Source of the DNA: a virus
Taxonomy: Duplodnaviria > Heunggongvirae > Uroviricota > Caudoviricetes
Virus record (IMG/VR): IMGVR_UViG_3300037067_004861
Strand: one strand, 5' to 3'
Length of the DNA: 64,000 nt
The stretch's first letter is position 1. Every line of letters starts with the position of its first letter. The translations under genes were made by a program, and so were the position numbers. Positions 1-29,399 of the stretch are shown one piece after another. Below the pieces are notes generated by a model. The model was not told the origin of the DNA. It saw nothing but the letters and a program-made list of their open reading frames with translations, and did no database searches.

Positions 1-65
1 GGCTATGCAATAGCTGCATTCGTTATAATTCTGGCAATTGACGTTAGCCATGCTCTTGCCTCTTA

Positions 66-312
66 TGATTGTAGTATCCCTGATTGTAGTATCCCTGATT
101 GTAGTATCCCTGATTGTAGTATCCCTGGTTGTAGTATCCCTGATTGTAGTATCCCTGATTGTAGTATCCCTGATTGTAGTATCCCTGATTGTAGTATCCC
201 TGGTTGTAGTATCCCTGATTGTAGTATCCCTGATTGTAGTATCCCTGATTGTAGTATCCCTGATTGTAGTATCCCTGGTTGTAGTATCCCTGGTTGTAGT
301 ATCAGGGAGTCC
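66..312. repeat. Tandem array of a 15-bp unit (gattgtagtatccct, with a G variant ggttgtagtatccct), about 16 copies arranged in a 75-bp higher-order period (DDDDG x3)
   Basis: Direct reading; ORFs 38..340(+) and 63..359(-) are periodic translations of this array. Confidence 0.9.
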
Positions 313-317
313 GGGAA

Positions 318-345
318 TCCTGGAATCCTGGAATCACTGATTCCT
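318..345. promoter_or_regulatory. Cluster of GGAATCC / GAATCAcTGATTC half-sites; member of the palindromic motif family GGAATCC-N-GGATTCC
   Basis: ggaatcctggaatcctggaatcactgattcc; related palindromes at 988, 1111, 4351 and 4946. Confidence 0.4.
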
Positions 346-514
346 AGAGGGTGACGCATACCTTGGCGTAGAAGCCCTCGCGTTCATCGTCTCCCTCTTG
401 ATAGGGGTCGATGATGAAACGAGAGGGGCCAGCCAACCACACTCCAACACCGCGTTGCAGTTCTTGACTGAGAACGGCGGCTGCCCGCCTAGCCTCATCA
501 TAGGTAGCGTACAT
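344..514 (-). CDS. Small hypothetical protein (about 56 aa); ends ...VTL* with GTCACCCTCTAGGA at the gene junction
   Basis: ATG at 514 preceded by aggagg-like RBS (ctaggaggaaagacc); same strand as neighbours; below the 60-aa ORF-track cutoff. Confidence 0.3.
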   Translation of the reverse strand: MYATYDEARRAAAVLSQELQRGVGVWLAGPSRFIIDPYQEGDDEREGFYAKVCVTL

Positions 515-525
515 GGTCTTTCCTC

Positions 526-855
526 CTAGAGGGTGACACGCAGGACGCCACCGTTAGGGCTATCGCTCAGAGCAATCATGGCGTATCGGCGTTGTCTACG
601 TTTGAAGTAGGCTATGGCCCGTTCGATCGTCCAGGGCTCCTGGAGCGGGATGCGGTAACTCTTGGGGCCGGCCTCAAGGATCATCGTGTTGGCTGTAACG
701 GTTGCGTTCATCGTAGTGCCCTCCAAGATAGACGTACTAACGGAAGAGGTGGTCGTTCCTAGCAAAAAAGGAAGCTTGGGCCCGTTTCTCTTCGGCACGC
801 AGGTATCGGGGAATCCTAGATTCACGACGTCGCTCGGGCAAGTAGCGGGCGACAA
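526..855 (-). CDS. Hypothetical protein; C-terminus ...RVTL*; stop is followed by a GGAGG RBS for the 344..514 ORF
   Basis: ORF track; GC-rich block; start uncertain (alternative frame 737..901 encodes a 54-aa membrane peptide coupled by ATGA to 898..1131). Confidence 0.35.
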   Translation of the reverse strand: MSPATCPSDVVNLGFPDTCVPKRNGPKLPFLLGTTTSSVSTSILEGTTMNATVTANTMILEAGPKSYRIPLQEPWTIERAIAYFKRRQRRYAMIALSDSPNGGVLRVTL

Positions 856-897
856 CCAAAGCTAGGACAGCCAAGATAGCGGAGACGGTCAAAGTAG

Positions 898-1131
898 TCA
901 TGGTTTGTCCTCCCTTTCTACTTCAACTATACCACGGAATCGGTGGTTGTCAAGTCTTTTTAAGAAAGAAAAGGATTTTAATATCCAAGAATCCGGGAAT
1001 CCCGGATTCTTTACAATCCTAGGCATGGGTGGATTGTTGTCGATCCATCCGGTGCAACCAGTCAAATCTTGGCAACCTATGCAACCTATGCAATCGGTGC
1101 AATCTCCACAATCCAGGATTCCCGGCTTCAC
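898..1131 (-). CDS. Cys-rich protein with CGDCTDCIGCIGC...GCTGWIDNNPP motif; related to 1468..1722 and 9517..9768; GTG start
   Basis: Shares the G[KC]TG[WY]xxNxPP tail with the other Cys-rich ORFs. The C-terminal 40 aa read through the palindromic DNA motif, so the reading frame or extent is doubtful. Confidence 0.3.
   Translation of the reverse strand: MKPGILDCGDCTDCIGCIGCQDLTGCTGWIDNNPPMPRIVKNPGFPDSWILKSFSFLKRLDNHRFRGIVEVEREDKP
988..1012. promoter_or_regulatory. Perfect 12-1-12 palindrome AAGAATCCGGGA-a-TCCCGGATTCTT; candidate operator
   Basis: Direct reading; belongs to the GGAATCC-N-GGATTCC motif family. Confidence 0.45.
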
Positions 1132-1411
1132 GGTTACATGCGTTTCTCGATTACACGCATCTTTGACGCTATTTTAATTGCTTCTTTTTTTCAAAAATGG
1201 CGAATCTTTGGGAATCCTTCGTAGCTGATTCCTGTTGAACGTCGCTAACGAGGCGACGGAGGGCCACTAATTCCTCAAGGCCCTGGGCCAAGCCCGCCCA
1301 GGTAGCTTGGCGAGGAGGAAGAGAGCAGACACGTTCGATGCGTTTACTGTCAATCATGGTACCCTCTCCCCTTCTACTCAACTCTACCACATTGCCCAGC
1401 CTTGTCAAGGA

Positions 1412-1435
1412 TATTCTGATAAAAATATCAGAATA
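1412..1435. promoter_or_regulatory. 10-4-10 palindrome TATTCTGATA-aaaa-TATCAGAATA next to a TTGACA hexamer
   Basis: Direct reading; intergenic between 1169..1408 and 1468..1722. Confidence 0.35.
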
Positions 1436-1467
1436 TCACAACCCAGGTTGCTATTATGACAATAATA

Positions 1468-1722
1468 TCATTTCCGTGGTTTGTTCCGATAGTAGCCCGT
1501 CTTGCCAACCAGCTCAAAACATTCGGCACAATCGACACAATCCACACAATCCTCACAGTCACTGCAGAAGTCACAATTGGTACATCTCTTGCATCGCTCA
1601 CTTTTGCTACAAAGTGTGCAATCCGTACAATCCCTACAACTAACACAACCAGCACAATTCTCGCAGTCCCCACAATACTGCGAATCCGGACAATCGAGAC
1701 ATTTGATATTAGTATCAGACAT
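1468..1722 (-). CDS. Cysteine-rich repeat protein, (DCxxC)n, about 24 Cys in 84 aa; C-terminal GKTGYYRNKPRK
   Basis: ORF track; CxxC periodicity every 3 residues; paralog of 9517..9768. Confidence 0.55.
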   Translation of the reverse strand: MSDTNIKCLDCPDSQYCGDCENCAGCVSCRDCTDCTLCSKSERCKRCTNCDFCSDCEDCVDCVDCAECFELVGKTGYYRNKPRK

Positions 1723-1786
1723 GGTACAATCCGTAAACAGAGAAAGAGGGGCAGCCTAGGTTTCCTAGGCTGCCCCTCCGAATGGG

Positions 1787-2821
1787 TTAGGCGTTGACTA
1801 CCTCTTTCGAGGCTTCCATAGCCTCCTGCAGAAGGGTATCAATCTCAACGTCGCCAACGTGTCGGCGGAGAGTGGCGAGGGCCGACGCCGCAATCTCCAA
1901 GGAGACGGCGTAATCGTCACAATCCGTCAACGTCTCCCCGCCCTGCCCGGTTGCCGCCAAGAGGACTCTCTTGACAATCTCCGATCGGGCCGTTTGGCCA
2001 CGGTCAACCGCCTGCTTGGGGGTAAGGCTCTTGGCCGTCTGGGTGGCCTCGTCCCCCTTGTCCTTGGGGGACATCACCTCATCCCACGCTACACGGAATA
2101 GGGGGCCGTCGCCCGCCGGGTAGTTAGCGTATTCCTTGCCAAACACGCCGAACAGACCGTTGATCTTCTGCCATTGCATCGGTGTGGATTTTGGCGAATA
2201 CACCGCTTTTTCCATTTCCGATTGAACGAATTGGGGCAGCCGGGCCAGGTTGGCACGAATCTGCACATAGCTCCGATTGGGGGCACCGGGGGTTTTGCCT
2301 TTGGTGTGGAAGATGCCGAGGATAGTGGCAATCTCCGCCTGCCCCTCTCCGATGCCAACAAGCTGCCGGATAGCCAAAAACTGGCTCCACTGGTCCAACG
2401 GCTCCCGGTCGGCGGCTGGGTCGTGGTCGATCCGGAGTCGGGTTTCCTCCGCTTCGGTGAGGCCCTTGTAAACGATACAGGGCACCTTCCCACCACCCAG
2501 AACCTCGGCGTAGGTGCCGGGCTCATTGTCCCGCAAAAATTGCAGGCTCTTGGCCCTCCGGTTGCCCCTCAAAACGAGATACTGGCCGTCGCTCTTCTCA
2601 CTCACCATAAGCGTCGAATCGGGCTGCCAGCCGTGCCTCTTGATGAGGTCGATCATGCCGGGAAGGTTGTAATTACGCTCGTCTCGGGGGTTGCCCCCGA
2701 AAATGAGGGCGTCAACCGGAACAAGCGTCGTCGTCTGCTTAGCCATTTCAATCACTCCAAACAAAACAAAGGGAACAAGGGGAACAAAGGGGAGAGGAAT
2801 GATATTATAATCAATCCTCAA
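1787..2821 (-). CDS. ParB-like N-terminal (sulfiredoxin-fold) nuclease-domain protein; likely true start at Met26 (about nt 2746, MAKQTTT)
   Basis: LVLRGNRR motif (ParB GxxRxxA box); GC-rich codon usage unlike most of the window; promoter-like TGATTATAATATC at 2800. Confidence 0.6.
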   Translation of the reverse strand: MRIDYNIIPLPFVPLVPFVLFGVIEMAKQTTTLVPVDALIFGGNPRDERNYNLPGMIDLIKRHGWQPDSTLMVSEKSDGQYLVLRGNRRAKSLQFLRDNEPGTYAEVLGGGKVPCIVYKGLTEAEETRLRIDHDPAADREPLDQWSQFLAIRQLVGIGEGQAEIATILGIFHTKGKTPGAPNRSYVQIRANLARLPQFVQSEMEKAVYSPKSTPMQWQKINGLFGVFGKEYANYPAGDGPLFRVAWDEVMSPKDKGDEATQTAKSLTPKQAVDRGQTARSEIVKRVLLAATGQGGETLTDCDDYAVSLEIAASALATLRRHVGDVEIDTLLQEAMEASKEVVNA

Positions 2822-3023
2822 ATTGCTGTATATCCTTACAAACGATCAGAACGTAAGAGGCCACGTATCCGAAAGCCGCCGATGCCAGGGCACGGAAGGG
2901 GTCAAAATCATTGTGAACGGCACTAACCGCGAAAACCGTCGACAACAGAGCAAACGGAAGAGTCGCCAAAATCGAGATAACCTGCATTGTCGGCCTCACT
3001 AGGAAAAGTGATACTATTGTCAA
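2811..3023 (-). CDS. Small hydrophobic hypothetical protein (two predicted TM segments)
   Basis: ORF track; minus-strand array. Confidence 0.35.
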   Translation of the reverse strand: MTIVSLFLVRPTMQVISILATLPFALLSTVFAVSAVHNDFDPFRALASAAFGYVASYVLIVCKDIQQFED

Positions 3024-3220
3024 TTGTTATCCTCACCAGTCACAACCCGGATAACCGGATGCCCATCGTCGAGCACGCCACTGGCAACAGAGGCTTGGCT
3101 AAGGCCGGCTGCAAATAGATCATCATCGGTATCATCCATGGAAACCGTTACAGTGCAGTCCAATTGCCACGGTTGCAACAATTGCAACGCCGAGAGTAGT
3201 TCGCGGTAGGTTGGCAACAC
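3020..3220 (-). CDS. Small acidic hypothetical protein
   Basis: ORF track; lies downstream of a consensus promoter at 3271..3298; 4-nt start/stop overlap with 2811..3023. Confidence 0.4.
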   Translation of the reverse strand: MLPTYRELLSALQLLQPWQLDCTVTVSMDDTDDDLFAAGLSQASVASGVLDDGHPVIRVVTGEDNN

Positions 3221-3270
3221 TTTCCGATACCCCTCTTGTGGGTGGTGTGGTAACTCTCGGCCTCTACTCC

Positions 3271-3298
3271 ATTATACCATGGCCTGGCATCGTGTCAA
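3271..3298 (-). promoter_or_regulatory. Sigma70-type promoter on the minus strand: TTGACA-16 nt-TATAAT
   Basis: Reverse complement reads ttgacacgatgccaggccatggtataat, with both hexamers consensus; upstream of 3020..3220. Confidence 0.65.
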
Positions 3299-3329
3299 GA
3301 GGAATTGTAAAGATTCCAGGAACCACCCA

Positions 3330-3668
3330 TTAGAGGGGTAGTTCTTCCACCAGCCACGAACTACTATCCTGATCGTAGGAACCGTTTTGATCCCCATGAT
3401 TGACAGCGTCGTAATTGCCGCGAAGAACGGAATCCCGGGCCTCATCGCTATGAGTGGCATAAACTGTGTAAACGGAATAACTCACACTTGGAACCGACAC
3501 GATGAAGCGCCTGAGTCCGGCAGCCTTGGCGAACCTCTCGGGGACGAACCGTGGGTTGGCTATCGAGGCCACGTCCATCACGGCATCGGCAATTGCCTGT
3601 TTGTTCATTTTATCCGGTTCATCCAGGATAATCCGAGCAAACTGCACTAAGTCTTTTTTCGTTAGCAT
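3330..3668 (-). CDS. Hypothetical protein (112 aa)
   Basis: ORF track. Confidence 0.4.
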   Translation of the reverse strand: MLTKKDLVQFARIILDEPDKMNKQAIADAVMDVASIANPRFVPERFAKAAGLRRFIVSVPSVSYSVYTVYATHSDEARDSVLRGNYDAVNHGDQNGSYDQDSSSWLVEELPL

Positions 3669-3672
3669 AGGT

Positions 3673-3948
3673 TCACTCCATATATTCGGAAGAATTGAGT
3701 GAGGCCGTTAAAGTCGCTACATCCGGAACCTTGAGAATCAAGAACCGCTCGATGTCCAGGGGCGACCATTCCTCGCCGGTGGCATCCTCAGTGATAGCCT
3801 GCACATTCCGCAAACCATGCAGCATCACTACAACCCTCAATGCCTCGCCGAGGGTCATGGACTCGATGGTGTGGGTGCTCTCGGCACCGGGCTGTTTGAG
3901 AGCGGAGCGGGATCGTTGGACGCGAAGAGAGAACCGTTGCAACGTCAT
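3673..3948 (-). CDS. Hypothetical protein (91 aa)
   Basis: ORF track; lies downstream of the promoter at 3999..4027. Confidence 0.4.
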   Translation of the reverse strand: MTLQRFSLRVQRSRSALKQPGAESTHTIESMTLGEALRVVVMLHGLRNVQAITEDATGEEWSPLDIERFLILKVPDVATLTASLNSSEYME

Positions 3949-3998
3949 CGTAGATCATCCTAGGATATGAGGAAGAGGGTGTTTGCCCCGACACCACT

Positions 3999-4027
3999 AT
4001 CCTACCATGGCTAGGGCCAGGTGTCAA
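3999..4027 (-). promoter_or_regulatory. Sigma70-type promoter on the minus strand: TTGACA-17 nt-TAGGAT; paralogous to the promoter at 3271..3298 (shared ACCATGGC...GTGTCAAGA context)
   Basis: Reverse complement reads ttgacacctggccctagccatggtaggat. Confidence 0.55.
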
Positions 4028-4081
4028 GAAGAAAACCGGTGGAATTGTTTGTTTCGATTCTAAGGGCAGTATATTCTACAG

Positions 4082-4172
4082 CCAGGTGCCAGGTGCCAGG
4101 TGTCCGGTGTCCGGTGTCCGGTGTCCGGTGTCCGGTGTCCGGTGTCCGGTGTCCGGTGTCCGGTGTCCGGTG
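4082..4172. repeat. Heptamer tandem repeat: (ccaggtg)x3 then (tccggtg) about x10
   Basis: Direct reading; ORF 4021..4479 is its translation artefact. Confidence 0.9.
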
Positions 4173-4220
4173 GGATTATGACAACATAGGTTTGATATTT
4201 TACACACCCTTTAGCGGGGT

Positions 4221-4350
4221 AGGGATTGTAACAATAATAGGGATTGTAACAACAATAGGGATTGTAACAATAATAGGGATTGTAACAATAATAATGATTT
4301 TAAGGATTGTAGTGATTTTAAGGATTATTACGGTTATTACGGTTGATTTT
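4221..4350. repeat. 18-bp tandem repeats (agggattgtaacaataat, x4) followed by shorter gattttaaggatt and ttattacgg repeats
   Basis: Direct reading. Confidence 0.85.
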
Positions 4351-4372
4351 AGAATCCAGGATTCACTGATTC

Positions 4373-4476
4373 CTATACGCACACCTACCCCGGCGCTCCC
4401 GGGCAGAACGAGAATCGTACTTTCAAAGCATAACTATACGCACACCTACCCCGGCGCTCCCGGGCAGAACGAGAAT
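4373..4476. repeat. Two copies of a 43-bp direct repeat (tatacgcacacctaccccggcgctcccgggcagaacgagaat), each holding a CCCGG-cgctc-CCGGG hairpin, separated by about 20 nt
   Basis: Direct reading. Confidence 0.85.
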
Positions 4477-4718
4477 TGAAAATGTAAAGAAAATGATGAT
4501 TTTGAAAATTGATTTTCAAATCATAATGTCATAATAATGAGAACACTATTGGACAATGGTTAATCTCTTATGACGCTAGAACGCCGTCTCACGCCCTCCA
4601 ACGCCCCAATGGCTCCCAAGACCAAAATGGGAAATGGGCTCCCTAGGCACGCAGCTAGGGCCCTTAAAAGGGAATCCGTAGCCGTGGCCACGGAAGCCGC
4701 GAGGGGTAGCCGGGAAGT

Positions 4719-4812
4719 CCATAAATAATAATACTTTTTCCTATTCCCCTATAGGGCATTTTTATTAGAAAGAGCCCTATAGGGGAATAGGAAAAAGTAT
4801 TATTATTTATGG
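4719..4812. repeat. Perfect inverted repeat with 38-bp arms (ccataaataataatactttttcctattcccctatagggc) and a 17-nt spacer; cruciform or hairpin-forming
   Basis: Right arm 4774..4812 is the exact reverse complement of left arm 4719..4756. Confidence 0.9.
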
Positions 4813-7710: not shown

Positions 7711-8652
7711 TTATCCCCTAGTCATGTCATTAAAGAGCTGGTCATCGCCGTTATCCGTAATAGAACTGTCCAAAGCTAGGCATCGTGCAGCGCTTTCCTC
7801 TTCTGATAAATCCCTGAAAATCCAACCACTCAGAATCACGTCCCAAGCATTGCTTATGTTAATGAACAATGCGTCTTGGTATTCCGGTGATATCCGCAGC
7901 CGATGGGTTGCGAACCGCAGCCGGGAGGCCGGACCACATATCTGGTCAATACCCGTAATCATGTCCGGCGATCCAATTGGCTCGCCAAGAAGCCATGAAT
8001 AAATAGACAACTGGTCCGCCCAGCCCCTATCCCCGTCTTCTAGGTGCATGGCGATATTGATATAAACGCCACGAACCTTTTGGAGATGGCAGTCCTTATG
8101 AATCTTGTAATCCACGCCGCCGTTTTCACGGAGCTTCACGAAGCCACGCATAGGACTCTTTAACGAATTACTACAGTAGCCGTTGACTTTCCAATCATAA
8201 ATGACCCGAGCCCCGTCTTCATTGATAAAGAAAATATCAGGCTTACCTAAGAGAGGCACACCCTCGATATCTCCCTTGATACTAAACTCGAATCGAGGAG
8301 GCCCGACTGCGGCCTCTAGCTCCAAAAGTAAGTCTGCTAGACACCCCGTGTTCTTATAGGCTTCAAAGACCTTCTTGCCTTCTTCCCACGCCCACGTCCT
8401 GTTATGTTCCTCGACTTGGGAATTGAAAATATCCTTGAGCGCGTATCCGTGACTCTCGGCTTCCGCGGCTCCGAACAGCTTTGTATAAAGGTAACTTTTG
8501 ACGTAGGCGTCGAACGCACTACCAATACTCATTGGCTTAGTTTGCGGTTCTCTTGGCGACCGCACGTCGCTAAGGTATCTACTATAAAAGAGTTCAATAT
8601 CATCGTAGAACAGCTTAACGCTGGTTGGACTCATGTATTCCGGAAGTCTCAT
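7711..8652 (-). CDS. PD-(D/E)XK superfamily nuclease (RecB/Cas4/phage-exonuclease-like)
   Basis: Motifs IGSAFDAYVK ... GKPDIFFINEDGARVIYDWK (D...D/ExK). Confidence 0.5.
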   Translation of the reverse strand: MRLPEYMSPTSVKLFYDDIELFYSRYLSDVRSPREPQTKPMSIGSAFDAYVKSYLYTKLFGAAEAESHGYALKDIFNSQVEEHNRTWAWEEGKKVFEAYKNTGCLADLLLELEAAVGPPRFEFSIKGDIEGVPLLGKPDIFFINEDGARVIYDWKVNGYCSNSLKSPMRGFVKLRENGGVDYKIHKDCHLQKVRGVYINIAMHLEDGDRGWADQLSIYSWLLGEPIGSPDMITGIDQICGPASRLRFATHRLRISPEYQDALFINISNAWDVILSGWIFRDLSEEESAARCLALDSSITDNGDDQLFNDMTRG

Positions 8653-8680: not shown

Positions 8681-8827
8681 TTATAGGGAATAGTTGAGAG
8701 TTCTACGGACAATGTATCCTATGAGAGCAAATGGACTTAAAAGTATCACCCCTACTATCACTATTGGGCTTATAAAGATAAGAACACCTATGCCAAGATA
8801 ACCTAGGAAACGGTCAAAATTATTCAT
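8681..8827 (-). CDS. Small membrane peptide (48 aa); ATGA start/stop overlap with 8824..9060
   Basis: Manual translation. Confidence 0.3.
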   Translation of the reverse strand: MNNFDRFLGYLGIGVLIFISPIVIVGVILLSPFALIGYIVRRTLNYSL

Positions 8828-9060
8828 GCTTGCTCTATGGATAGTGTACTCTTAATCAGGAAGGCACCGGTCATATCTGTATCATAATCTTTATTATTAT
8901 CATTCTCCGGAACTATACTAGCAATATAGACGTTACAGCCCCAGTAGTATCGGCATTCATCCCAATCAAAAGTTAAAAACTCTAAACCCCTATCGCCCCA
9001 TCGGGCATAATGATAGTTAGTTAATGTGAATGGCTTCATAGTGTTAAAAATCTCTCCCAC
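8824..9060 (-). CDS. Hypothetical protein
   Basis: ORF track. Confidence 0.4.
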   Translation of the reverse strand: MGEIFNTMKPFTLTNYHYARWGDRGLEFLTFDWDECRYYWGCNVYIASIVPENDNNKDYDTDMTGAFLIKSTLSIEQA

Positions 9061-9516: not shown

Positions 9517-9768
9517 TTACTCTTCCGGAGGCTTATTATTCACCCACCCTGTTTTCCCGCATAGTCCACTACAGTTCTTGCAGCAGTCACAGTCTTCACA
9601 GGAGTCACAGCTTACACAATCGCGACATTCGATGCAGTCGAAGCAAAGGCAGCAATCGTCGCAATTACGGCAACTGTTGCAGTCAACACAATGTGTACAC
9701 TCTTCACAGTCATAGCATGATAGGCAATGCCTACAGTATCGACACCCTTGACAGTCATTATTAAACAT
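9517..9768 (-). CDS. Cysteine-rich repeat protein (CxxC)n, about 26 Cys in 83 aa; C-terminal GKTGWVNNKPPEE
   Basis: Paralog of 1468..1722. Confidence 0.55.
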   Translation of the reverse strand: MFNNDCQGCRYCRHCLSCYDCEECTHCVDCNSCRNCDDCCLCFDCIECRDCVSCDSCEDCDCCKNCSGLCGKTGWVNNKPPEE

Positions 9769-9792
9769 AATTATAACCTTTATTTTTTGATT

Positions 9793-9936
9793 TTAATAGC
9801 AGAGGAACACGACAAGAAGAATGGTTATTAACAATATGGGATGTGGACGATTACAGCACTTGGGACAATCACAGCTTTTGGGACAAATACTGCAGTCCTC
9901 ATAATTACAACAATTACTGCAACAATTATTGTACAT
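9793..9936 (-). CDS. Small Cys-rich peptide (47 aa; CC pairs, then a hydrophobic C-terminal anchor)
   Basis: Manual translation MYNNCCSNCCNYEDCSICPKSCDCPKCCNRPHPILLITILLVVFLCY. Confidence 0.3.
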   Translation of the reverse strand: MYNNCCSNCCNYEDCSICPKSCDCPKCCNRPHPILLITILLVVFLCY

Positions 9937-9946
9937 AATTTTTATT

Positions 9947-10177
9947 TTACTTTCTAACCGCGAAGTCAAGGAAAAAGGTATCCAATCTCTCCCCCTCCGG
10001 AGTCCAGAACTCCATCATCCCGTTGATATAATCTAAACTAATCGAGGGAACCTTGTCTCCAACAATATAATCATGGTTATTGCCCTCTAATGCAGTTTTG
10101 AGAGTACAATCAAGATAATTGTAGCAAAGCTCGTCGATTAGTTCACACTCTTTGGAAGTGAAAAGCTTATCTAGCAT
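9947..10177 (-). CDS. Hypothetical protein, paralog of 10223..10441 (M[LI]DKLFT...)
   Basis: ORF track; N- and C-terminal similarity between the pair. Confidence 0.4.
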   Translation of the reverse strand: MLDKLFTSKECELIDELCYNYLDCTLKTALEGNNHDYIVGDKVPSISLDYINGMMEFWTPEGERLDTFFLDFAVRK

Positions 10178-11689: not shown

Positions 11690-12478
11690 TTATAATATCC
11701 TCGCTGCCTTATTCGTCCAAGAATACGTCAATTCTCCATTAGGCCAGAAGATCAGTTGACGCTGTTTCCGAGGATTCACGGATTCGGTGAGGCAATTACT
11801 CACGGCGACGTTGTATCCTTGGTAATTATAAACACGGAGACCGTAATCGTACTCCAATAACAAATCCGCATAACCCTCTAAACAGTCTCTAAGCCAATCT
11901 AATGAAGAATGGAACTCCGTGGCATGACTTACTTCACGGAAGGTCGACTGCATGACTCCGGGAGTCGTGATAACATTAACCATATCCCCTAAATTAGTGA
12001 CGCCACCTTTAACCACGGTGACGTTAAGACGCACAGCCAAGCCAGCCTTGTTAGCATAAGCAATGACCTTACGATAGTCATAGTCTTCCGGGAGACCCAT
12101 TAACTGATTATTGATTATATTATCGGGATGGGCGATAGATAGGCAAAGCGTAGTGAGACCGTTCTCTTCTAATTGTGCAACTCCGGCTTCTGATAATAGG
12201 GCCCCGTTAGTCATTAACTCAATGAAGTCAAAGCGGTAACGATGCAATCGTTCCGTGTACTCTACTAAGAGGTCCCAATGCAGCGTCGGCTCACCTTTTC
12301 CGGTGAGAATCGCGGTATCCGTGATTCTATTAGCCCAGGCACAAACCCTATTGAAGCGGTGCCAATTGGGGGTTAATGTAAGATCGAAATTGGTTTTAGT
12401 TCTCTTGGCTATGCACCAAGGGCAGGAGGCGTTGCACTTCTTATCCCCAACGACAACGGAGAAAGTATCGAAATTCAT
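11690..12478 (-). CDS. Radical SAM enzyme (small; QueE-, NrdG- or PflA-activase-like)
   Basis: N-terminal CNASCPWC (CX3CX2C) and GKGEPTLH (GGEP-like) motifs. Confidence 0.6.
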   Translation of the reverse strand: MNFDTFSVVVGDKKCNASCPWCIAKRTKTNFDLTLTPNWHRFNRVCAWANRITDTAILTGKGEPTLHWDLLVEYTERLHRYRFDFIELMTNGALLSEAGVAQLEENGLTTLCLSIAHPDNIINNQLMGLPEDYDYRKVIAYANKAGLAVRLNVTVVKGGVTNLGDMVNVITTPGVMQSTFREVSHATEFHSSLDWLRDCLEGYADLLLEYDYGLRVYNYQGYNVAVSNCLTESVNPRKQRQLIFWPNGELTYSWTNKAARIL

Positions 12479-12635
12479 ATTGTTACCTTATTTCTTATTC
12501 TCTGATAGACTTATCAAGTAAGCCATTCCAAGTAAAAATAGTGCCACAGAGGATAATACAATCGGTGTACCGAACACATTTTGCAGAACCAAAAGACCTT
12601 TAATGAGCATGATCTTATTATCCTTATAATTAAAA

Positions 12636-12720
12636 GCCTGGGGCAGGAGTCGAACCTGCTAATCCGCACTGGATGCAAGCAGAGCCAGCACGAGCGTGTC
12701 CCGTCCACAACCGCCCAGGC
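12636..12720 (-). tRNA. Non-canonical 85-nt tRNA-like element, copy 1: perfect 7-bp acceptor stem and a canonical T-arm (GCAGG-TTCGACT-CCTGC), but the D and anticodon arms do not fold canonically
   Basis: Hand folding; identical to 13193..13277; sits inside a roughly 120-bp direct repeat. Confidence 0.4.
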
Positions 12721-12737
12721 GATATCTTAGTAATCTA

Positions 12738-12953
12738 TTATCTTTGTATCCTATTGACAGTATGAATATAGTATTCTGCACCAGTATTAGTTACTATGGC
12801 CCTCATGGTGTCAAGATTCACTTTAACATCTATCTCTGAGGGACCAAAATATTGACTCTTAATAATAAGCTTGATATCCTCTTCATCCGTAGCAAAATCT
12901 TCTAATACATCATCGAAATATGGACCTAATGTCACAAGATAAACAGTATTCAT
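12738..12953 (-). CDS. Hypothetical protein (71 aa) flanked by the two tRNA-like repeats
   Basis: ORF track. Confidence 0.4.
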   Translation of the reverse strand: MNTVYLVTLGPYFDDVLEDFATDEEDIKLIIKSQYFGPSEIDVKVNLDTMRAIVTNTGAEYYIHTVNRIQR

Positions 12954-13192
12954 AGTAATACACTTGTCCTTATTAATTACTCCTTAATTATTCTATTCTT
13001 TCTAAGATATAAATACCTAAGCCTGCCGTCAGAGAATCCTTGAGCTTTTCGTATAGTTCCTTGTTGCAATTAAGGCAAAGGGTCAGGGTTTCACACATAT
13101 TGATTCCATAAGTGACTCTAACCACGGATTCATGGTTTCTGCAGATTTGGCAAAGCATCCTATTATCCTATGATCTTACCCTATAATTAAAA

Positions 13193-13277
13193 GCCTGGGG
13201 CAGGAGTCGAACCTGCTAATCCGCACTGGATGCAAGCAGAGCCAGCACGAGCGTGTCCCGTCCACAACCGCCCAGGC
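13193..13277 (-). tRNA. Non-canonical 85-nt tRNA-like element, copy 2 (identical to 12636..12720)
   Basis: Exact duplicate including the flanking ttatcct...ataattaaaagcc and gatatcttagtaatctatt. Confidence 0.4.
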
Positions 13278-13283
13278 GATATC

Positions 13284-13532
13284 TTAGTAATCTATTTCTT
13301 GGTATTTAGGACGCATACGATTTAGACAACCACAATACGGACATGGGATGCCTATATGTTTGTCTACTAATGTACCCCTTGGAATACATAGATTGATGTT
13401 ATGTGTACAATTAGTGCAGTAGCATTTAGCTTTATAAGTCTTGGATTTGGATTTGGTTAATAGTGTTATTAGAATTTGCATAATCACTATCATCACGAAA
13501 ATGATAAGGAAACCAATATCGGAGTATGTCAT
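13284..13532 (-). CDS. Small membrane protein with zinc-finger-like Cys pairs (CYCTNC...CPYCGC)
   Basis: ORF track. Confidence 0.4.
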   Translation of the reverse strand: MTYSDIGFLIIFVMIVIMQILITLLTKSKSKTYKAKCYCTNCTHNINLCIPRGTLVDKHIGIPCPYCGCLNRMRPKYQEIDY

Positions 13533-13543
13533 AATGTTTTACT

Positions 13544-13897
13544 TTATGCTATATGTGGAGTAGGAGGATTACCGTCTAACACTGTTTGAACGGTACGTGT
13601 AACATCACGGATTCTCGTATCCCTCTCTTCTCGGAGGGCATTCTTCAACCCGTCCCAAGCCTCCTCAACTGTTGGGAACAGTAGCTCCGGTGATTTATAG
13701 TAATCATTATGGCAGGCCCCTGTGACAAGGATTTTATTATCAACTACCTTTTTGTATATTACCTCAAATATCTTACACGTGACCCTATTATTAGACATGA
13801 AATCATAATAATAGCCGTAGAGAGTAACACCCGGCGTTAGATGACCGTTGCCTTGACCGCATGTCGGACAGTATTTAACGAAGTCTGAAAGTTTCAT
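13544..13897 (-). CDS. Hypothetical protein, member of a 3-gene tandem paralog family (with 13910..14227 and 14241..14546)
   Basis: Shared pattern: YTY.F.I...N.....YK..FKE........G......P..LF.T.EEAW.GLK.AL...R..RI. Confidence 0.5.
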   Translation of the reverse strand: MKLSDFVKYCPTCGQGNGHLTPGVTLYGYYYDFMSNNRVTCKIFEVIYKKVVDNKILVTGACHNDYYKSPELLFPTVEEAWDGLKNALREERDTRIRDVTRTVQTVLDGNPPTPHIA

Positions 13898-13909
13898 GGT
13901 TTTAATACC

Positions 13910-14227
13910 TTATACCAATACCAACGGCATAGTAGAGTTACTTACTACCCTATCAATTGCATCCGAAATATCCTTGATTCTAATAACCTTTAGTCCTAGA
14001 AGGGCTATTTTCAATTCCTCCCAAGCTCCCTCTGGTGTCCCAAACAATAGTGACGGGCTGTAATACCGAATAACTCCCCTATTGACACAAGAAATAATAC
14101 CCTTGTATTCCTCTTTAAAGAAAACCTTGTACAAGTAATATACTACACAATTATTATCTAGAATTTTATATTCATATGTGTACAGTGCCGCACCATTATC
14201 CATATTAACGAAGTCAGTTAGTTTCAT
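13910..14227 (-). CDS. Hypothetical protein, paralog family member
   Basis: See 13544..13897. Confidence 0.5.
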   Translation of the reverse strand: MKLTDFVNMDNGAALYTYEYKILDNNCVVYYLYKVFFKEEYKGIISCVNRGVIRYYSPSLLFGTPEGAWEELKIALLGLKVIRIKDISDAIDRVVSNSTMPLVLV

Positions 14228-14240
14228 AGTTTTAATCCTA

Positions 14241-14546
14241 TTATTTTAATCCTAATACTTCTGGCATCGGGCCATCCACAATACTCTTAATATCCTCCAA
14301 GATACCCCTGATCCTATTATCTCTTTCCTTTAGGGCGGCTAGTTTCAAACCCTCCCAAGCTTCCTCTGGTGTTAGGAATAACATCTCTGGTTCTAGATGC
14401 CAATCATAATAACCATTAAAGACAATAATGCGATTGCCAAGCTGCTCTTTAAATGTCACCTTGTATAGGTTACATACATTATGGCCTATGATATCAAAAT
14501 CATAGGTATACAATATAGTGCCTGGAGGTTTATTAACGAAAATCAT
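14241..14546 (-). CDS. Hypothetical protein, paralog family member
   Basis: See 13544..13897. Confidence 0.5.
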   Translation of the reverse strand: MIFVNKPPGTILYTYDFDIIGHNVCNLYKVTFKEQLGNRIIVFNGYYDWHLEPEMLFLTPEEAWEGLKLAALKERDNRIRGILEDIKSIVDGPMPEVLGLK

Positions 14547-25395: not shown

Positions 25396-25773
25396 TTAAA
25401 TTAGAAACTCCGCTACTTCACAGAGTAGACTCTTGTTGGTTTGGCTGGCCCGGACGACGCGGAGACTCTTAACTTTGACAGTATTATCAGTGATGGGGCA
25501 CCGTCGGAGAACCTCAGCCCGTGCTTTCGGCATAAGGATACATTTCAAGCCAAGATGTGTAAGATGCTCCGAATCCTGGAGACGCCATTCTGGTTCAATT
25601 TCCGTGATTTCCGGAACGAAGGCCCTACCATAAATAAAGGGAGGCTTGTTCTCCGTAACCTCTACCGTGAGTATGGCTTCACCATTCATCGCCGTGAGAA
25701 TACTATCAACGGCTGGCACGGTAGACAATACATTGCGGTACTTCTCAGACCAATCACTTAGACTCATTTTCAT
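25396..25773 (-). CDS. Hypothetical protein
   Basis: ORF track. Confidence 0.4.
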   Translation of the reverse strand: MKMSLSDWSEKYRNVLSTVPAVDSILTAMNGEAILTVEVTENKPPFIYGRAFVPEITEIEPEWRLQDSEHLTHLGLKCILMPKARAEVLRRCPITDNTVKVKSLRVVRASQTNKSLLCEVAEFLI

Positions 25774-26302
25774 ATCTCCTAGCTAGTCTCTGACGAATCT
25801 TGGATACTTCACTTCGCGTTATCTTCAACGTCTTGGCTGTTTGGGTATCGGTGAGCCCGGAACGCCGGCACTCCACCACAGATCGTTCAATAGGGAGTCG
25901 GATAATAGCATCAATCGTGTCCTCGAACTCCAACTCATCGAATGGATTCGCGGATGCAATATCCTCTTCTATTGAAGAATACTTGAAATTAGCCTTGCGT
26001 TTCGGTGTCCGGATAGCAGCATTATTATGGATGGCTTGACAACAAGCGTCCTTAATCATGCTGCATAGGTATGATGTGATATTTCTATCATTACGTAGTT
26101 TGTGAACGGCTCGCACTAATCCTAGAGTCGCGGAATCCAGCATCTCCTCGTAGTCGTGCGTGAACCGGGAGTAGTATTCCGAGAACCTAAGAACATATGG
26201 CATATGACATAGGATAAGGGCGTCATAGTTTTCACTGTTCTTATATTCGATTAAAATATCATCGCTTGGGTGTGGCGGAAAAGTCACGTTTTCGTACATC
26301 AC
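25754..26302 (-). CDS. Sigma-70 family RNA polymerase sigma factor (phage-encoded; ECF-like, regions 2 and 4)
   Basis: Region 2: YEEMLDSATLGLVRAVHKL...SYLCSMIKDACCQAI. Region 4 HTH: LTDTQTAKTLKITRSEVSKIRQRLARR. Confidence 0.6.
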   Translation of the reverse strand: MMYENVTFPPHPSDDILIEYKNSENYDALILCHMPYVLRFSEYYSRFTHDYEEMLDSATLGLVRAVHKLRNDRNITSYLCSMIKDACCQAIHNNAAIRTPKRKANFKYSSIEEDIASANPFDELEFEDTIDAIIRLPIERSVVECRRSGLTDTQTAKTLKITRSEVSKIRQRLARRYENESK

Positions 26303-26707: not shown

Positions 26708-27394
26708 TTATACCTCTGCCAGAACTTCAAATTCCTTGCAACGCCACTTATCCCCGGCCCTATGGATATCTGTCTTCTTCGTCCTAACCTTGATAATGGG
26801 GCCACGAGAATTGGTGTTTGACTCTTGAAATTTCAAGACCATGGCAACCGTAGGGTAAAGATAGAGGCCAGGATGGCATTCGGTCTTGCAGGTGGAGAAA
26901 TATGGAGCCTTTACTTTATCTCCAACACTATAGCTACCACTATTCAAACGCCTTTTAGAGCGATAACCGATAATATAATCACCATCCTCCTTGAATCCTC
27001 TGTAATCTGTGTTTAATGTGTTCCTGGGATCAAGAGCAGTATGGTTGATGTTGGCCTCAGTGAGATTAATATCATAGAGGTCCGTTTCTTGCAGATAGGC
27101 TCCTTGGAGATTGGCTCCATGGAGGTTAGCTTCCCATAGATATGCGTATAGGAGATTAGTACCTTGGAGATTGGCCCCTGGGAACTGGGACTGCATTAGT
27201 ACAGCTCCTTGGAGATTGGCTCCTTGAAGATTGGCTCCTTGGAGATTGGCTCTTCGGAGATCGGCTTCTCGAAGATTGGCGCCTCGGAGATCGGCTTCCC
27301 GGAGATCGGCCTCATAGAGATTAGCTCTTTCTCCACCTTCTCTATCTTGTAGCCAAAGACTATGCTTTTCCAGGGCGACTTTAATATCAATCAT
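26708..27394 (-). CDS. Pentapeptide-repeat protein with a conserved unrecognised C-terminal domain (paralog 1 of 3)
   Basis: A(D/N)LxxA(N/D)L repeats; C-terminal DYRGFKEDGDYIIGYRSKRRL...TECHPGLYLYPT...KWRCKEFEVLAE is shared with 27408..28148 and 28599..29399. Confidence 0.7.
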   Translation of the reverse strand: MIDIKVALEKHSLWLQDREGGERANLYEADLREADLRGANLREADLRRANLQGANLQGANLQGAVLMQSQFPGANLQGTNLLYAYLWEANLHGANLQGAYLQETDLYDINLTEANINHTALDPRNTLNTDYRGFKEDGDYIIGYRSKRRLNSGSYSVGDKVKAPYFSTCKTECHPGLYLYPTVAMVLKFQESNTNSRGPIIKVRTKKTDIHRAGDKWRCKEFEVLAEV

Positions 27395-27407
27395 GGCTTA
27401 ACCCTTA

Positions 27408-28148
27408 TTATTCATACTCTGCCAGAACTTCAAACTCCTTGCAACGCCACTTCTTACCAGCCTTATGAATATCTGTCTTCTTCGTTCTTACCACAATTAT
27501 AGGGCCCCAAGAATTGGGATTTCCTCTTTGAAAGTTCAATACCATCTCTATTGTAGGGTAGAGATAAAGGCCCGGATGGCATTCTGTCGTACAGGTGGAG
27601 AAGTAAGGGGCTTTTACTTTCTCTCCGATACTGTAGTGACCACTATTCAAACGCCTTTTCGTCCGGTATCCGATAATATAATCACCATCCTCCTTGAAGC
27701 CTTTATATTCCATATTCAAGGTATTTCTTGGGTCCAGAACAGTACCGGTGATCCTGGCCCTGGTGAGATTAGTTCCGTAGAGGTCAGTTTCCTGTAAACA
27801 GGCTCCTTGGAGATTGGCTTCAGAGAGGTCAGCTCCCGATAGATGTGCGTATAGGAGATTTGCCCATTGAAGGTTGTTTTCTCGAAGGTTGGCCTGCATT
27901 AAGTAGGCTCCGCTGAGTGAGGCTCCTTTGAAATTAGCTACTTGAAGATCGGCCCCATGGAATGTAGCATAGGAAAGATTAGCATATTGTAGGTTGGCAC
28001 CACGTAGGTCGGCTTTGGTGAGATCAGCATTTTGAAGGTCAGCTTCGCGGAGATCGGCTCCTAGGAAATTTGCTCGCTCTCCGTCCGGATCACCGTGAAG
28101 CCACTTCCTATGGGAATCTAGAATGCCTTTAATAGTGATATCAATCAT
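27408..28148 (-). CDS. Pentapeptide-repeat protein with the same C-terminal domain (paralog 2 of 3)
   Basis: See 26708..27394. Confidence 0.7.
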   Translation of the reverse strand: MIDITIKGILDSHRKWLHGDPDGERANFLGADLREADLQNADLTKADLRGANLQYANLSYATFHGADLQVANFKGASLSGAYLMQANLRENNLQWANLLYAHLSGADLSEANLQGACLQETDLYGTNLTRARITGTVLDPRNTLNMEYKGFKEDGDYIIGYRTKRRLNSGHYSIGEKVKAPYFSTCTTECHPGLYLYPTIEMVLNFQRGNPNSWGPIIVVRTKKTDIHKAGKKWRCKEFEVLAEYE

Positions 28149-28151
28149 AAT

Positions 28152-28493
28152 TTAACCTTTAAAATCAATTACACCGTACTCAGAGTTGGTGATAGTGTAA
28201 TAGCAACGTCGGACGCCAACCATTTGCATAAATGATCGGCAGGTCCGACAGGGTGTCGCATTAGCGTAGTCACCATTCTTTAGGACACGGACGACATAAA
28301 CAATAGAACCCTTATCCAACTTCCTGCACAATCGGGCTTCGGCATGAGCCTGCGGTTCCGGATATCGGCAAGGCAGATTAGTTGATTTTACTATCGTTCC
28401 ATCGGCCCTAAGTCCCACGGCTCCGATACAATATCTCCTGATATCATTCTTTTTGATAGCAATACGTTCGGCTAATCGGAACATGCGTTTCAT
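28152..28493 (-). CDS. Cytidine/deoxycytidylate deaminase-fold zinc enzyme (CDA, dCMP-deaminase or TadA-like; 113 aa)
   Basis: Zinc-binding motifs HAE and PCxxC (HAEARL...ATPCRTCRSF). Confidence 0.6.
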   Translation of the reverse strand: MKRMFRLAERIAIKKNDIRRYCIGAVGLRADGTIVKSTNLPCRYPEPQAHAEARLCRKLDKGSIVYVVRVLKNGDYANATPCRTCRSFMQMVGVRRCYYTITNSEYGVIDFKG

Positions 28494-28518
28494 GGTTGTA
28501 TATCTTTAATAGTAAAAG

Positions 28519-28591
28519 TAGGACGGGAAGGAATCGAACCTTCGGCCACGACTTTATAAGAATCGCACTCTAACCACTGAGTTACCGTCCC
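28519..28591 (-). tRNA. tRNA-Ile (anticodon UAU)
   Basis: Hand fold: acceptor GGGACGG/CCGTCCT (G1-U72), D-stem ACTC/GAGT, anticodon arm CGATT-CTTATAA-AGTCG, T-arm GAAGG-TTCGATT-CCTTC. Confidence 0.75.
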
Positions 28592-28598
28592 ATTCCTT

Positions 28599-29399
28599 TT
28601 AGTATTCTGTCTCGGACAGGACTTCAAACTCCTTGCAACGCCACTTGTCTCCCGCCCTATGAATATCCGTCTTCTTGGCTTTCACTTTAATGATAGGACC
28701 TGCTAGGGAGGTACTGTGGGTATACATAAAGTTTAATACCATTTGAACCGTGGGGTAGAGGTAAAGACCTGGATGGCATGGAGAAAAGCTAATAGAGAAG
28801 TAAGGTGACGTAACTTTCTCCCCGACTGTGTATTCCCCATCGTTCATAAGACGCCTTTTCGTCCTGTATCCGATAATATAATCACCGTCCTCCTCAAATC
28901 CTTTGTAGTCTCTATTAGGCGTATTACTTGGATTGAGACAAGTGCGGATGAGATCGGCTCCTTCTAGATCAGCCCCATAGAGGGCAGTCTCAGAGAGAGC
29001 AGCCCAACGGAGATCGGCTCTTTGGAGATGGGCATTTTGAAGGTCAGCTTCTCGGAGATCGGCTCCTTGGAGATTGGCTCCTTGGAGATCGGCTCCTTGG
29101 AGATTGGCGTAACATAGTTTTGCATGTTGTAGATTCGCTTTTTGGAGACAGGCATATTTAAGATTGGCTTCTCGGAGATCGGCTTCTTGTAGATTGGCTC
29201 CTTGGAGATTAGCGTGACATAGGGTGTTCCCTCTTAAACTAGCATAAGAGAGATTGACTCCTGGAAGATCGGACCCATTTAGAATGACTCCTTGGAAATT
29301 TGCTCTTTCTCCACCCTCTATATTCTTGAGCCAAAGACTGTGCTTTTCCACGGTGGTTTTAATATCAATCATTGTATTTCCTAAATTAGAGTTATCCAT
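28599..29399 (-). CDS. Pentapeptide-repeat protein with the same C-terminal domain (paralog 3 of 3)
   Basis: See 26708..27394. Confidence 0.7.
   Translation of the reverse strand: MDNSNLGNTMIDIKTTVEKHSLWLKNIEGGERANFQGVILNGSDLPGVNLSYASLRGNTLCHANLQGANLQEADLREANLKYACLQKANLQHAKLCYANLQGADLQGANLQGADLREADLQNAHLQRADLRWAALSETALYGADLEGADLIRTCLNPSNTPNRDYKGFEEDGDYIIGYRTKRRLMNDGEYTVGEKVTSPYFSISFSPCHPGLYLYPTVQMVLNFMYTHSTSLAGPIIKVKAKKTDIHRAGDKWRCKEFEVLSETEY

Follow-up and report, generated by a model that had tools for sequence, protein, structure and literature searches.

A duplicated tRNA-like element between small genes of an uncultivated tailed phage

The locus and the duplicated cassette

We analyzed a phage DNA stretch of 64,000 nucleotides (IMG/VR record IMGVR_UViG_3300037067_004861, Caudoviricetes; hereafter the window), in which a string of small genes contains two identical copies of an 85-nt tRNA-like element. 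Both copies are on the minus strand and were designated E1 (13193 to 13277) and E2 (12636 to 12720). When the 85-mer was searched with up to three mismatches allowed, only these two positions matched in the window, both with 0 mismatches, and 100 shuffles gave 0 matches. A tRNA descriptor scan also detected both copies, and the element gave a selenocysteine tRNA (tRNA-Sec) match of 20 bits, as described below. The element is lineage-restricted and lies in a duplicated intergenic cassette of this uncultivated phage.

The copies are surrounded by a 118-bp direct repeat (12622 to 12739 and 13179 to 13296) that is 99% identical, with a spacing of 557 bp. This agrees with a preliminary description of the DNA, made from the sequence alone, which had reported two identical 85-nt copies within direct repeats of about 120 bp. 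On the minus strand, repeat copy 1 (13179 to 13296) comprises 19 nt upstream of the element, including the TAA stop codon of an 82-aa open reading frame (ORF), followed by E1 and TTTTAATTATAGGG. Repeat copy 2 (12622 to 12739, minus strand) comprises AATAGATTACTAAGATATC, E2, and TTTTAATTATAAGG. Beyond the repeat, with a 4-nt indel, the likeness of the two copies runs on through TAAGATCAT toward the next start codon; it reaches the ATG in the E2 copy and ends approximately 12 nt before the ATG in the E1 copy. The discriminator of E2 is U at 12635, and CCA is not encoded. As read from the sequence, a U-rich trailer (UUUUAAUUAUA) is followed by a Shine-Dalgarno region (AAGGAUAAUAAGAUC) and the ATG of a 40-aa ORF (12609 to 12635, minus strand), and a similar stretch is located 3' of E1 (13158 to 13192). 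The sequence AAGGATAATA is a motif that recurs before start codons in this phage. The cassette is an intergenic unit of approximately 120 to 135 bp, consisting of the upstream stop-codon region, the element, the U-rich trailer, and much of the downstream Shine-Dalgarno region. Both copies have the same orientation as all neighboring genes, start 6 to 13 nt past a stop codon, and end 25 to 34 nt before the next ATG. A scan with the sigma-70 consensus detected no strong minus-strand promoter in the repeat; the phage's own sigma factor may use other promoters.

All genes around the copies are on the minus strand. The 82-aa ORF upstream of E1 (13284 to 13532) has an N-terminal hydrophobic segment and a CxxC...CxxC pattern and matched no Pfam or PHROG family; repeat copy 1 covers its last four codons along with the stop codon. 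Two ORFs are located between the copies, where the preliminary description had placed one small gene. The first encodes a 56-aa CxxC...CxxC protein without a family match (12988 to 13158), and the second encodes a 71-aa protein (12738 to 12953) that matched only itself among 5.8 billion proteins. The 40-aa hydrophobic ORF (12488 to 12610) lies between E2 and a gene for a 262-aa radical SAM protein with a CxxxCxxC motif (11690 to 12478).

We compared this region with the nearest relative, L132 (a contig of GCA_043956535.1), which is syntenic from a tRNA-Lys gene to beyond the radical SAM gene and whose radical SAM protein is 84% identical. L132 contains neither copy of the element. A synteny map based on blastn revealed two window-specific insertions on the minus strand. 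Insertion 1 (12950 to 14538, 1.59 kb) contains three paralogous ORFs of 101, 105, and 117 aa, the 82-aa ORF, E1, and the 56-aa ORF. Insertion 2 (12480 to 12727; 248 nt in the window, 11 nt in L132) contains the E2 cassette and the 40-aa ORF, which is absent from L132. The 71-aa ORF is the sole gene of this stretch with a counterpart in L132. The genes of the two insertion blocks had no homologues among the 5.8 billion proteins. The preliminary description had suggested a mini mobile element; this holds in a weaker form, as an element within an intergenic cassette that is duplicated in lineage-specific insertions. At the position of the E2 cassette and the 40-aa ORF, L132 has a spacer before the radical SAM gene (7973 to 8000) that consists of three tandem copies of ACTATAGGATATA.

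The three paralogues are tandem ORFs just upstream of E1 (13544 to 14546, minus strand; 117, 105, and 101 aa; 35 to 41% identical), and repeat families D1, D3, and D4 reflect their repeated intergenic starts. A profile search with the three paralogues gave self matches only and no homologue outside this phage.

The radical SAM protein matched only the generic Pfam domain PF04055 (1.7e-10). The preliminary description had called it QueE/NrdG-like, which we could not substantiate: no NCBIfam match of the protein reached its cut-off, and all matches, QueE and NrdG models included, were far below it. A search with this protein yielded L132 as the one close relative; more distant homologues are found in unrelated phages, among NAD-salvage genes. 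Since the orthologue in L132 has no element upstream, a functional link of the element to the radical SAM gene is unlikely.

Structure of the element and resemblance to tRNA

The element can be divided into the parts of a cloverleaf, of which the acceptor stem and T-arm are complete. The acceptor stem is formed by element positions 1 to 7 and 79 to 85 (GCCUGGG/CCCAGGC; 13271 to 13277 with 13193 to 13199 in E1, 12714 to 12720 with 12636 to 12642 in E2) with seven Watson-Crick pairs. The T-arm (positions 62 to 78, GCAGG-UUCGACU-CCUGC; 13200 to 13216 in E1, 12643 to 12659 in E2) has a 5-bp T-stem and the T-loop GGTTCGACTCC. Both parts are present as the preliminary description had given them. The 5' part of the element contains a near-canonical, D-arm-like hairpin (positions 12 to 26, UGUG-GACGGGA-CACG; 13252 to 13266 in E1, 12695 to 12709 in E2), in which U12-G15 and C23-G26 form 4 bp closing a 7-nt loop with GG and a terminal A. 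The D-stem can be extended by G9-C29 and G10-U28. Compared with a canonical tRNA, the linker from the acceptor stem is 4 nt (CGGU) instead of 2, and 3 nt instead of 1 follow the stem.

The place of the anticodon arm is occupied by a long hairpin (positions 30 to 55; 13223 to 13248 in E1, 12666 to 12691 in E2). A 7-bp stem (GTGCTGG/CCAGTGC; five Watson-Crick and two G-U pairs) closes a 12-nt loop, CTCTGCTTGCAT, located at 13230 to 13241 in E1 and at 12673 to 12684 in E2 (CUCUGCUUGCAU). The preliminary description had recognized this stem and loop and regarded it as the sole structure of the D and anticodon regions, overlooking the 4-bp D-arm. The loop consists of CU, 8 nt, and AU; its ends resemble anticodon-loop positions 32-33 and 37-38, between which eight bases stand where three would be normal. 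Within it, U40-A47 and G41-C46 are able to cap a CUUG tetraloop. The variable region is GGAUUA (positions 56 to 61; 13217 to 13222 in E1, 12660 to 12665 in E2). An exhaustive scan of the central region (positions 8 to 61) detected no perfect 5-bp stem with a 7-nt loop. With this hairpin in place of an anticodon arm, the RNA is unable to read codons.

An explicit cloverleaf model of the element has a free energy of −31.6 kcal/mol. When the acceptor stem and T-arm were enforced, the best fold was the cloverleaf at −33.8 kcal/mol, 1.7 above the unconstrained minimum. A class-II (Ser-like) fold obtained with relaxed ARAGORN settings was rejected, as at −25.1 kcal/mol it is 6.5 kcal/mol worse than the cloverleaf and lacks U33 and purine 37. 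The GC content of the element is 66%, compared with 45 to 54% for the phage's own tRNAs and approximately 41% for the genome. The four genuine tRNAs of the phage do not encode CCA and have U-rich trailers right after the discriminator; the element shares these flanks, with a discriminator U followed by UUUAAUUAUA and no encoded CCA.

To evaluate the resemblance to tRNA, we used a minimal descriptor, which required a T-stem of 5 bp with a TTCRANN loop directly next to an acceptor stem of 7 bp, in a total length of 68 to 95 nt. In the window, this descriptor detected exactly the four tRNAs called by ARAGORN and Rfam together with E1 and E2, and 200 locally shuffled windows gave three matches in total (approximately 0.015 each). 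The tRNA resemblance is beyond chance; such an acceptor/T-arm geometry is unlikely to arise by chance. The other T-loop-like matches in the window (18325, 18494, and 35594) fall in coding sequence.

ARAGORN made no call for the element at default settings or with the intron option, and Rfam gave no match at gathering thresholds, so the element received no isotype and is non-canonical, as first described. In the permissive E-value mode of Rfam, only tRNA-Sec (RF01852) matched, with 20 bits (E = 0.37, cut-off 47), and the acceptor stem and T-arm alone were aligned. The T-loop UUCGACU matches that of tRNA-Sec, and the possible extension of the D-stem by G9-C29 and G10-U28 is a further likeness. 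tRNA-Sec was rejected, however, as the geometry is 7/5 and not 8/5 (or 9/4), C8 has no pairing partner, no loop contains UCA, and there is no long variable arm. ARAGORN detected no transfer-messenger RNA (tmRNA) at default; a 'permuted' tmRNA called at a relaxed threshold (-ps80) has an unidentified tag, spans a protein-coding ORF, and was judged spurious. Bacterial Y RNA (YrlA) and skipping-rope RNA were absent from a 900-nt Rfam search even at E ≤ 10.

In-silico removal of any five bases at loop positions 37 to 42 resulted in a default ARAGORN tRNA call, indicating that the oversized loop is what blocks recognition. The isotype after deletion depended on the bases removed (Ala-UGC, Ala-CGC, Glu-CUC, or Gln-CUG), and the calls depended on moving the acceptor stem by 2 nt, on mismatches, and on a T-stem of 4 bp. 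Among 303 tRNAs, the best match to the 5' and 3' parts was tRNA-Thr(CGU) (G1-C72, C2-G71, C3-G70, U73), which was not accepted as the ancestral isotype because the ranking mixes isotypes. The element is best described as a tRNA-derived cloverleaf incapable of decoding.

We searched for relatives of the element by exact patterns and BLAST, which would miss a divergent relative. The 4-kb region had no nucleotide match in INPHARED, and blastn of the element against INPHARED detected only matches of 20 to 30 nt between its T-arm and assorted tRNAs. In IMG/VR, exact sub-patterns revealed no relative: the 23-nt variable region with T-arm gave 0 matches, the loop combined with the T-loop gave 0, and the 17-nt D-arm pattern gave one, within an HNH gene. 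The loop and T-loop pattern matched four times in JGI metagenomes, with 0 homologues. The same phage, with identical sequence, was present in a few samples, JGI 3300035208, ENA ERZ27247350, and SRR6484325 among them, and one of the assemblies breaks inside the element, as expected for a repeat.

The 16-nt apex of the long hairpin, GGCUCUGCUUGCAUCC (GG-CUCUGCUUGCAU-CC), recurs in IMG/VR on top of long hairpins with different stems. These hairpins are all intergenic with complementary stems and are located in the unrelated viral contigs L002 (1163 to 1200, plus strand), L003 (895 to 932, minus strand), and, more weakly, L005 (4998 to 5035, plus strand); those in L002 and L003 are followed by U-tracts. 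The 16-mer occurs at 12 loci, the number that chance predicts. Its contexts alone are unusual, and these hairpins were picked post hoc. L002 also has a type II hammerhead ribozyme (4347 to 4421). A literature search with the loop sequence returned only unrelated primers, and its complement as an antisense seed, AUGCAAGCAGAG, had no match in the window better than chance.

Possible functions of the element

We tentatively propose that E1 and E2 are non-decoding elements of tRNA origin that would be cut by RNase P and RNase Z and would thereby punctuate the mRNA between small phage genes. This reading was ranked first because the copies sit between a stop codon and the next ATG in a co-oriented gene string; on the arrangement and structure described above we consider it possible, though less than probable. 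A processing signal of this type was among the possibilities in the preliminary description. A leftward polycistronic transcript of the small phage genes would contain E1 and E2. Host RNase P would cut just 5' of G1, six nt past the upstream stop codon, and a 3' tRNA-processing nuclease (RNase Z, or RNase E with exonucleases) would cut after the U discriminator in the U-rich trailer. The cuts would divide the operon mRNA into separately stable pieces, with the Shine-Dalgarno site of the next gene at the new 5' end, and would free an approximately 85-nt tRNA-shaped RNA that could receive CCA. The element would travel as a cassette of approximately 120 to 135 bp, duplicated within an indel-rich stretch of orphan genes.

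The element keeps a 12-bp acceptor/T-arm minihelix, a consensus T-loop, and the GG of the D-loop. These are the features that RNase P, RNase Z, and the CCA-adding enzyme recognize; the decoding loop is destroyed. The T-loop GGTTCGACTCC also fits the GGTTCRANYCC motif used to find plant t-elements (PMC1920247).

Several points weigh against punctuation by tRNA processing. L132 carries the orthologous genes without the element, which is therefore not required for the operon. The unconstrained minimum-free-energy fold is not tRNA-like (−35.5 kcal/mol), and its z-score against shuffles is just −0.75. The base at −1 is C, where U is preferred, and the linker between acceptor stem and D-stem has 4 nt instead of 2. 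The exact-pattern and BLAST searches found no homologue that could show covariation or conservation, and the copies, being identical, do not reveal selection. Furthermore, we infer cleavage, stability, and CCA addition alike, and to our knowledge tRNA-like punctuation of phage mRNAs has not been described previously.

The element may instead be a functionless relic, that is, a tRNA gene that lost its activity through small insertions (5 nt in the anticodon loop and a few around the D-arm and variable region) and copied passively through recombination of repeated cassettes in a hyperplastic region. This is suggested by the ARAGORN call that returns when five loop bases are removed, by the repeat that runs into flanking regulatory sequence, and by the position in indel-rich orphan-gene DNA absent from L132. 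It is not unusual for phage contigs to contain irregular tRNA-like genes that ARAGORN and Rfam miss, and the PeSL cassettes of T4-type phages provide a precedent (PMC2839356, PMC4122927). However, neutral decay would not be expected to keep all 12 acceptor/T-arm pairs and the T-loop consensus perfect with the rest remodeled. The long hairpin has a well-formed 7-bp stem, and a high GC content is kept in an AT-rich genome. We consider a relic rather unlikely.

Alternatively, the released RNA may itself be the product and act in trans as a tRNA mimic, a decoy or sponge for a host factor that recognizes the acceptor/T-arm or the tRNA shape. Candidate targets could be a tRNA-targeting defense nuclease, a 3'-end-modifying toxin, the CCA-adding enzyme, EF-Tu, or a synthetase. 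It is known that tRNAs of phages can counteract defense systems that cleave tRNAs. The element has intact recognition surfaces (acceptor stem, T-arm, and D-loop GG) and a destroyed decoding loop, its 66% GC suggests foreign origin or strong structural selection, and two copies would provide dosage. On the other hand, the neighboring DNA encodes no partner protein, the ORFs on either side of the copies are orphans, and the collections searched contained no homologue. Anticodon nucleases recognize the anticodon loop, which is abnormal here. There is also no anticodon-independent synthetase identity element, as pair 3:70 is C-G and not G-U, a long variable arm is absent, and the discriminator is U73. 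A role of this kind appears to us unlikely.

The two activities might also be combined, in that the approximately 85-nt RNA, once excised, would decoy a host factor recognizing the tRNA shape, such as a tRNA-targeting immune nuclease or a 3'-end-modifying toxin. The 16-nt apex GG-CUCUGCUUGCAU-CC would then be a reusable recognition module, since it also caps unrelated viral hairpins. We regard this combination as unlikely.

As a terminator or insulator, the element would attenuate transcription between cistrons through its GC-rich multi-branch structure, with the 7-bp acceptor stem at the base and UUUU directly after it. UUUUAAUUAUA directly follows the closing stem, and the hairpins with the same apex in L002 and L003, with their U-tracts, resemble intrinsic terminators. 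A terminator scan of the repeat nevertheless made no call, only four consecutive U residues are present, and the structure is multi-branched. The genuine tRNAs of the phage have the same U-rich trailers, and essential-looking genes continue downstream in the same orientation. We therefore judge attenuation to be improbable.

A decoding tRNA with an expanded or trimmed loop would be Ala-UGC (CUCUG removed), Glu-CUC (GCUUG removed), or a reader of extended codons. The loop CU...AU resembles C32 U33 ... A37 U38, its seven 3'-proximal bases (CUUGCAU) are a canonical Ala-UGC anticodon loop, and tRNA-Ala(UGC) genes of phages in IMG/VR share the GGACGGGA D-loop and the same T-loop. At a relaxed threshold, ARAGORN reported Glu(ctc) with a 5-nt 'intron', and the in-silico deletions gave Ala, Glu, or Gln at default. 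The anticodon stem, however, is 7 bp and not 5, the alanine identity pair G3:U70 is absent, and the ARAGORN calls require the 2-nt-shifted acceptor stem, mismatches, and 4-bp T-stem noted above. The choice of the five nucleotides is arbitrary and alters the isotype. The natural expanded anticodon loops that are known have 8 to 9 nt, and we know of no 5-nt bacterial tRNA intron or trimming system. The preliminary description had included a degenerate or intron-bearing tRNA among its possibilities; the anatomy and the call restored by deletion fit it, but we know of no mechanism that removes 5 nt from an RNA loop. Decoding by the element seems quite improbable.

Finally, a duplicated attP-type core derived from a host tRNA gene, also raised in the preliminary description, is highly improbable. 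tRNA genes are common integration sites and the element has a complete tRNA-like 3' half, but the 21-nt 3' half (GGTTCGACTCCTGCCCCAGGC) occurs only once in 596 Gb (185,579 species genomes, GTDB representatives, from which the true host is possibly missing), and that single match falls within coding sequence rather than a tRNA. A scan of 30 ORFs detected no integrase domain; two ParB-like proteins are present. Both copies are complete, in direct orientation, and inside the operon rather than at genome ends.

Comparison with known systems and other features

Considered as a whole, the element is a variant of known tRNA-like processing elements and irregular phage tRNA-like genes, with a predicted function. 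Plant mitochondrial t-elements were reportedly described by Hanic-Joyce et al. in 1990. They are non-canonical cloverleaves whose ends are cut by RNase P and RNase Z, that define mRNA ends, and that receive non-templated C and A residues (PMC1920247). t-elements (Forner et al. 2007, PMC1920247) and the phage element both keep a perfect pseudo-uridine arm (GGTTCRANYCC) and acceptor stem. Both lie in mRNA flanks abutting coding regions, and neither is expected to decode. The phage element differs in belonging to a bacteriophage with bacterial RNase P and RNase Z, not to an organelle, in being a predicted signal only, and in lying within a duplicated cassette; as its anticodon arm it has a long, well-formed hairpin, not a degenerate region.

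PeSL cassettes of T4-type phages (PMC2839356, PMC4122927) resemble the phage cassette as near-identical short intergenic units flanking small orphan ORFs. Both occur in hyperplastic regions that differ between close relatives, and their direct repeats could mediate gene gain and loss. In agreement with this likeness, the two copies here are 99 to 100% identical and both lie in insertions absent from L132. PeSL combines an early promoter with a simple terminator-like stem-loop, whereas the core of the phage cassette is an 85-nt tRNA shape with no promoter identified, and it has only two copies in 64 kb, unlike PeSL.

Allo-tRNA-like genes (Mukai et al. 2017, via PMC7609411) and pseudo-tRNAs such as the tRNA-Other of B. 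cereus (PMC3399842) are, like the element, tRNA-shaped and break cloverleaf rules, for example by extra nucleotides between the acceptor and D-stems, and standard detectors miss them. Some of these irregular genes are inactive in translation and tied to mobile DNA. In allo-tRNAs, the acceptor/T geometry is 8/4 or 9/3, the variable arm is long, and the anticodon loop has the normal 7 nt, whereas the element has 7/5, a short variable region, and a 12-nt loop.

None of the known decoding tRNAs, frameshift suppressors included, comes near a 12-nt loop on a 7-bp stem. Frameshift-suppressor tRNAs have 8-nt anticodon loops and share with the element that the loop is expanded. In eukaryotes, RNase P and RNase Z release tRNA-like small RNAs of the mascRNA type from long transcripts, as proposed here for the phage element, and these RNAs are not related to the element in sequence.

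Processing punctuated by tRNAs is known from mitochondria and a few eukaryotic long RNAs. If RNase P and RNase Z do cut the element, as the punctuation proposed above would require, this processing would be extended to a bacteriophage operon, and it would also show that tRNA-like cassettes can move together with orphan genes in hyperplastic DNA. Action of the released RNA in trans would make it a novel tRNA mimic of phages. ARAGORN and Rfam miss tRNA-shaped elements whose loops are abnormal, several more of which were encountered in tRNA arrays of phages, so inventories of tRNA-like genes in phages are probably under-counted. The element is an orphan of a single lineage, and its significance is potential.

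Other irregular tRNA-like elements were detected. Locus L009 (9473 to 9563, minus strand) has a 91-nt irregular tRNA-like gene with a perfect acceptor stem, a T-arm (loop UCCGACU), and an encoded CCA, and it contains the 16-mer of the element in reverse orientation. It was not called by ARAGORN or Rfam and gave weak matches to skipping-rope RNA (18 bits) and tRNA-Sec (17.5 bits). A family link was rejected, as a covariance model of the element gives it 26.9 bits and ordinary phage tRNAs reach 29 bits. In L137 (4663 to 4714, minus strand), an intergenic 12-mer CUCUGCUUGCAU upstream of a 116-aa ORF abuts a mini tRNA-like helix, in which a 6-bp acceptor-like stem (GUCAUC/GAUGAC) surrounds a perfect T-arm (GCUGG-UUCGACU-CCAGC) without an Rfam match.

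More tRNA-shaped elements with good acceptor stems and T-arms, uncalled by ARAGORN and by Rfam at gathering thresholds, are present in IMG/VR contigs. Those in L152 (approximately 89 to 170, minus strand) and L172 (approximately 161 to 245, plus strand) are Sec-like with a CUUCAAA loop, and L153 has an 88-nt tRNA-shaped element (approximately 286 to 373, minus strand). The element of L156 (4510 to 4589, plus strand) belongs to a tRNA array and has a UAU loop and a D-stem of 6 bp, and that of L175 (approximately 8803 to 8874, minus strand) has a CUUAAAA (UUA) loop and a CCA end.

The window is a tailed-phage genome encoding a family-A DNA polymerase, a DNA ligase, a primase/helicase-like DUF5906 protein, a tape-measure protein, and DNA methylases, together with a sigma factor and the two ParB-like proteins. 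An SNF2-type helicase ORF (42083 to 44389, minus strand) contains an intein splicing domain at residues ~164 to 273. Three consecutive pentapeptide-repeat proteins (228, 246, and 266 aa) are encoded at 26708 to 29399 (minus strand), with a tRNA-Ile(UAU) gene (28518 to 28591) between the second and third, and a sigma-70-like factor is encoded at 25754 to 26302. Very cysteine-rich small ORFs are located at 9517 to 9969 (minus strand), one of 83 aa with many CxxC motifs and one of 58 aa with CC/CxxC runs.

Dense non-coding repeats occupy positions 4000 to 4800; they comprise approximately 11 copies of CACCGGA followed by three of CACCTGG, together with four to five copies of TTGTTACAATCCCTATTA and two copies of approximately 45 nt of ATTCTCGTTCTGCCCGGGAGCGCCGGGGTAGGTGTGCGTATAG. 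A long inverted repeat containing ATACTTTTTCCTATTCCCCTATAGGGC is located at 4730 to 4800, and the GC content falls from 0.50-0.54 in positions 1 to 4000 to approximately 0.41 in 4000 to 4800. These repeats could mark the end of the genome, an origin, or a region with regulatory function.

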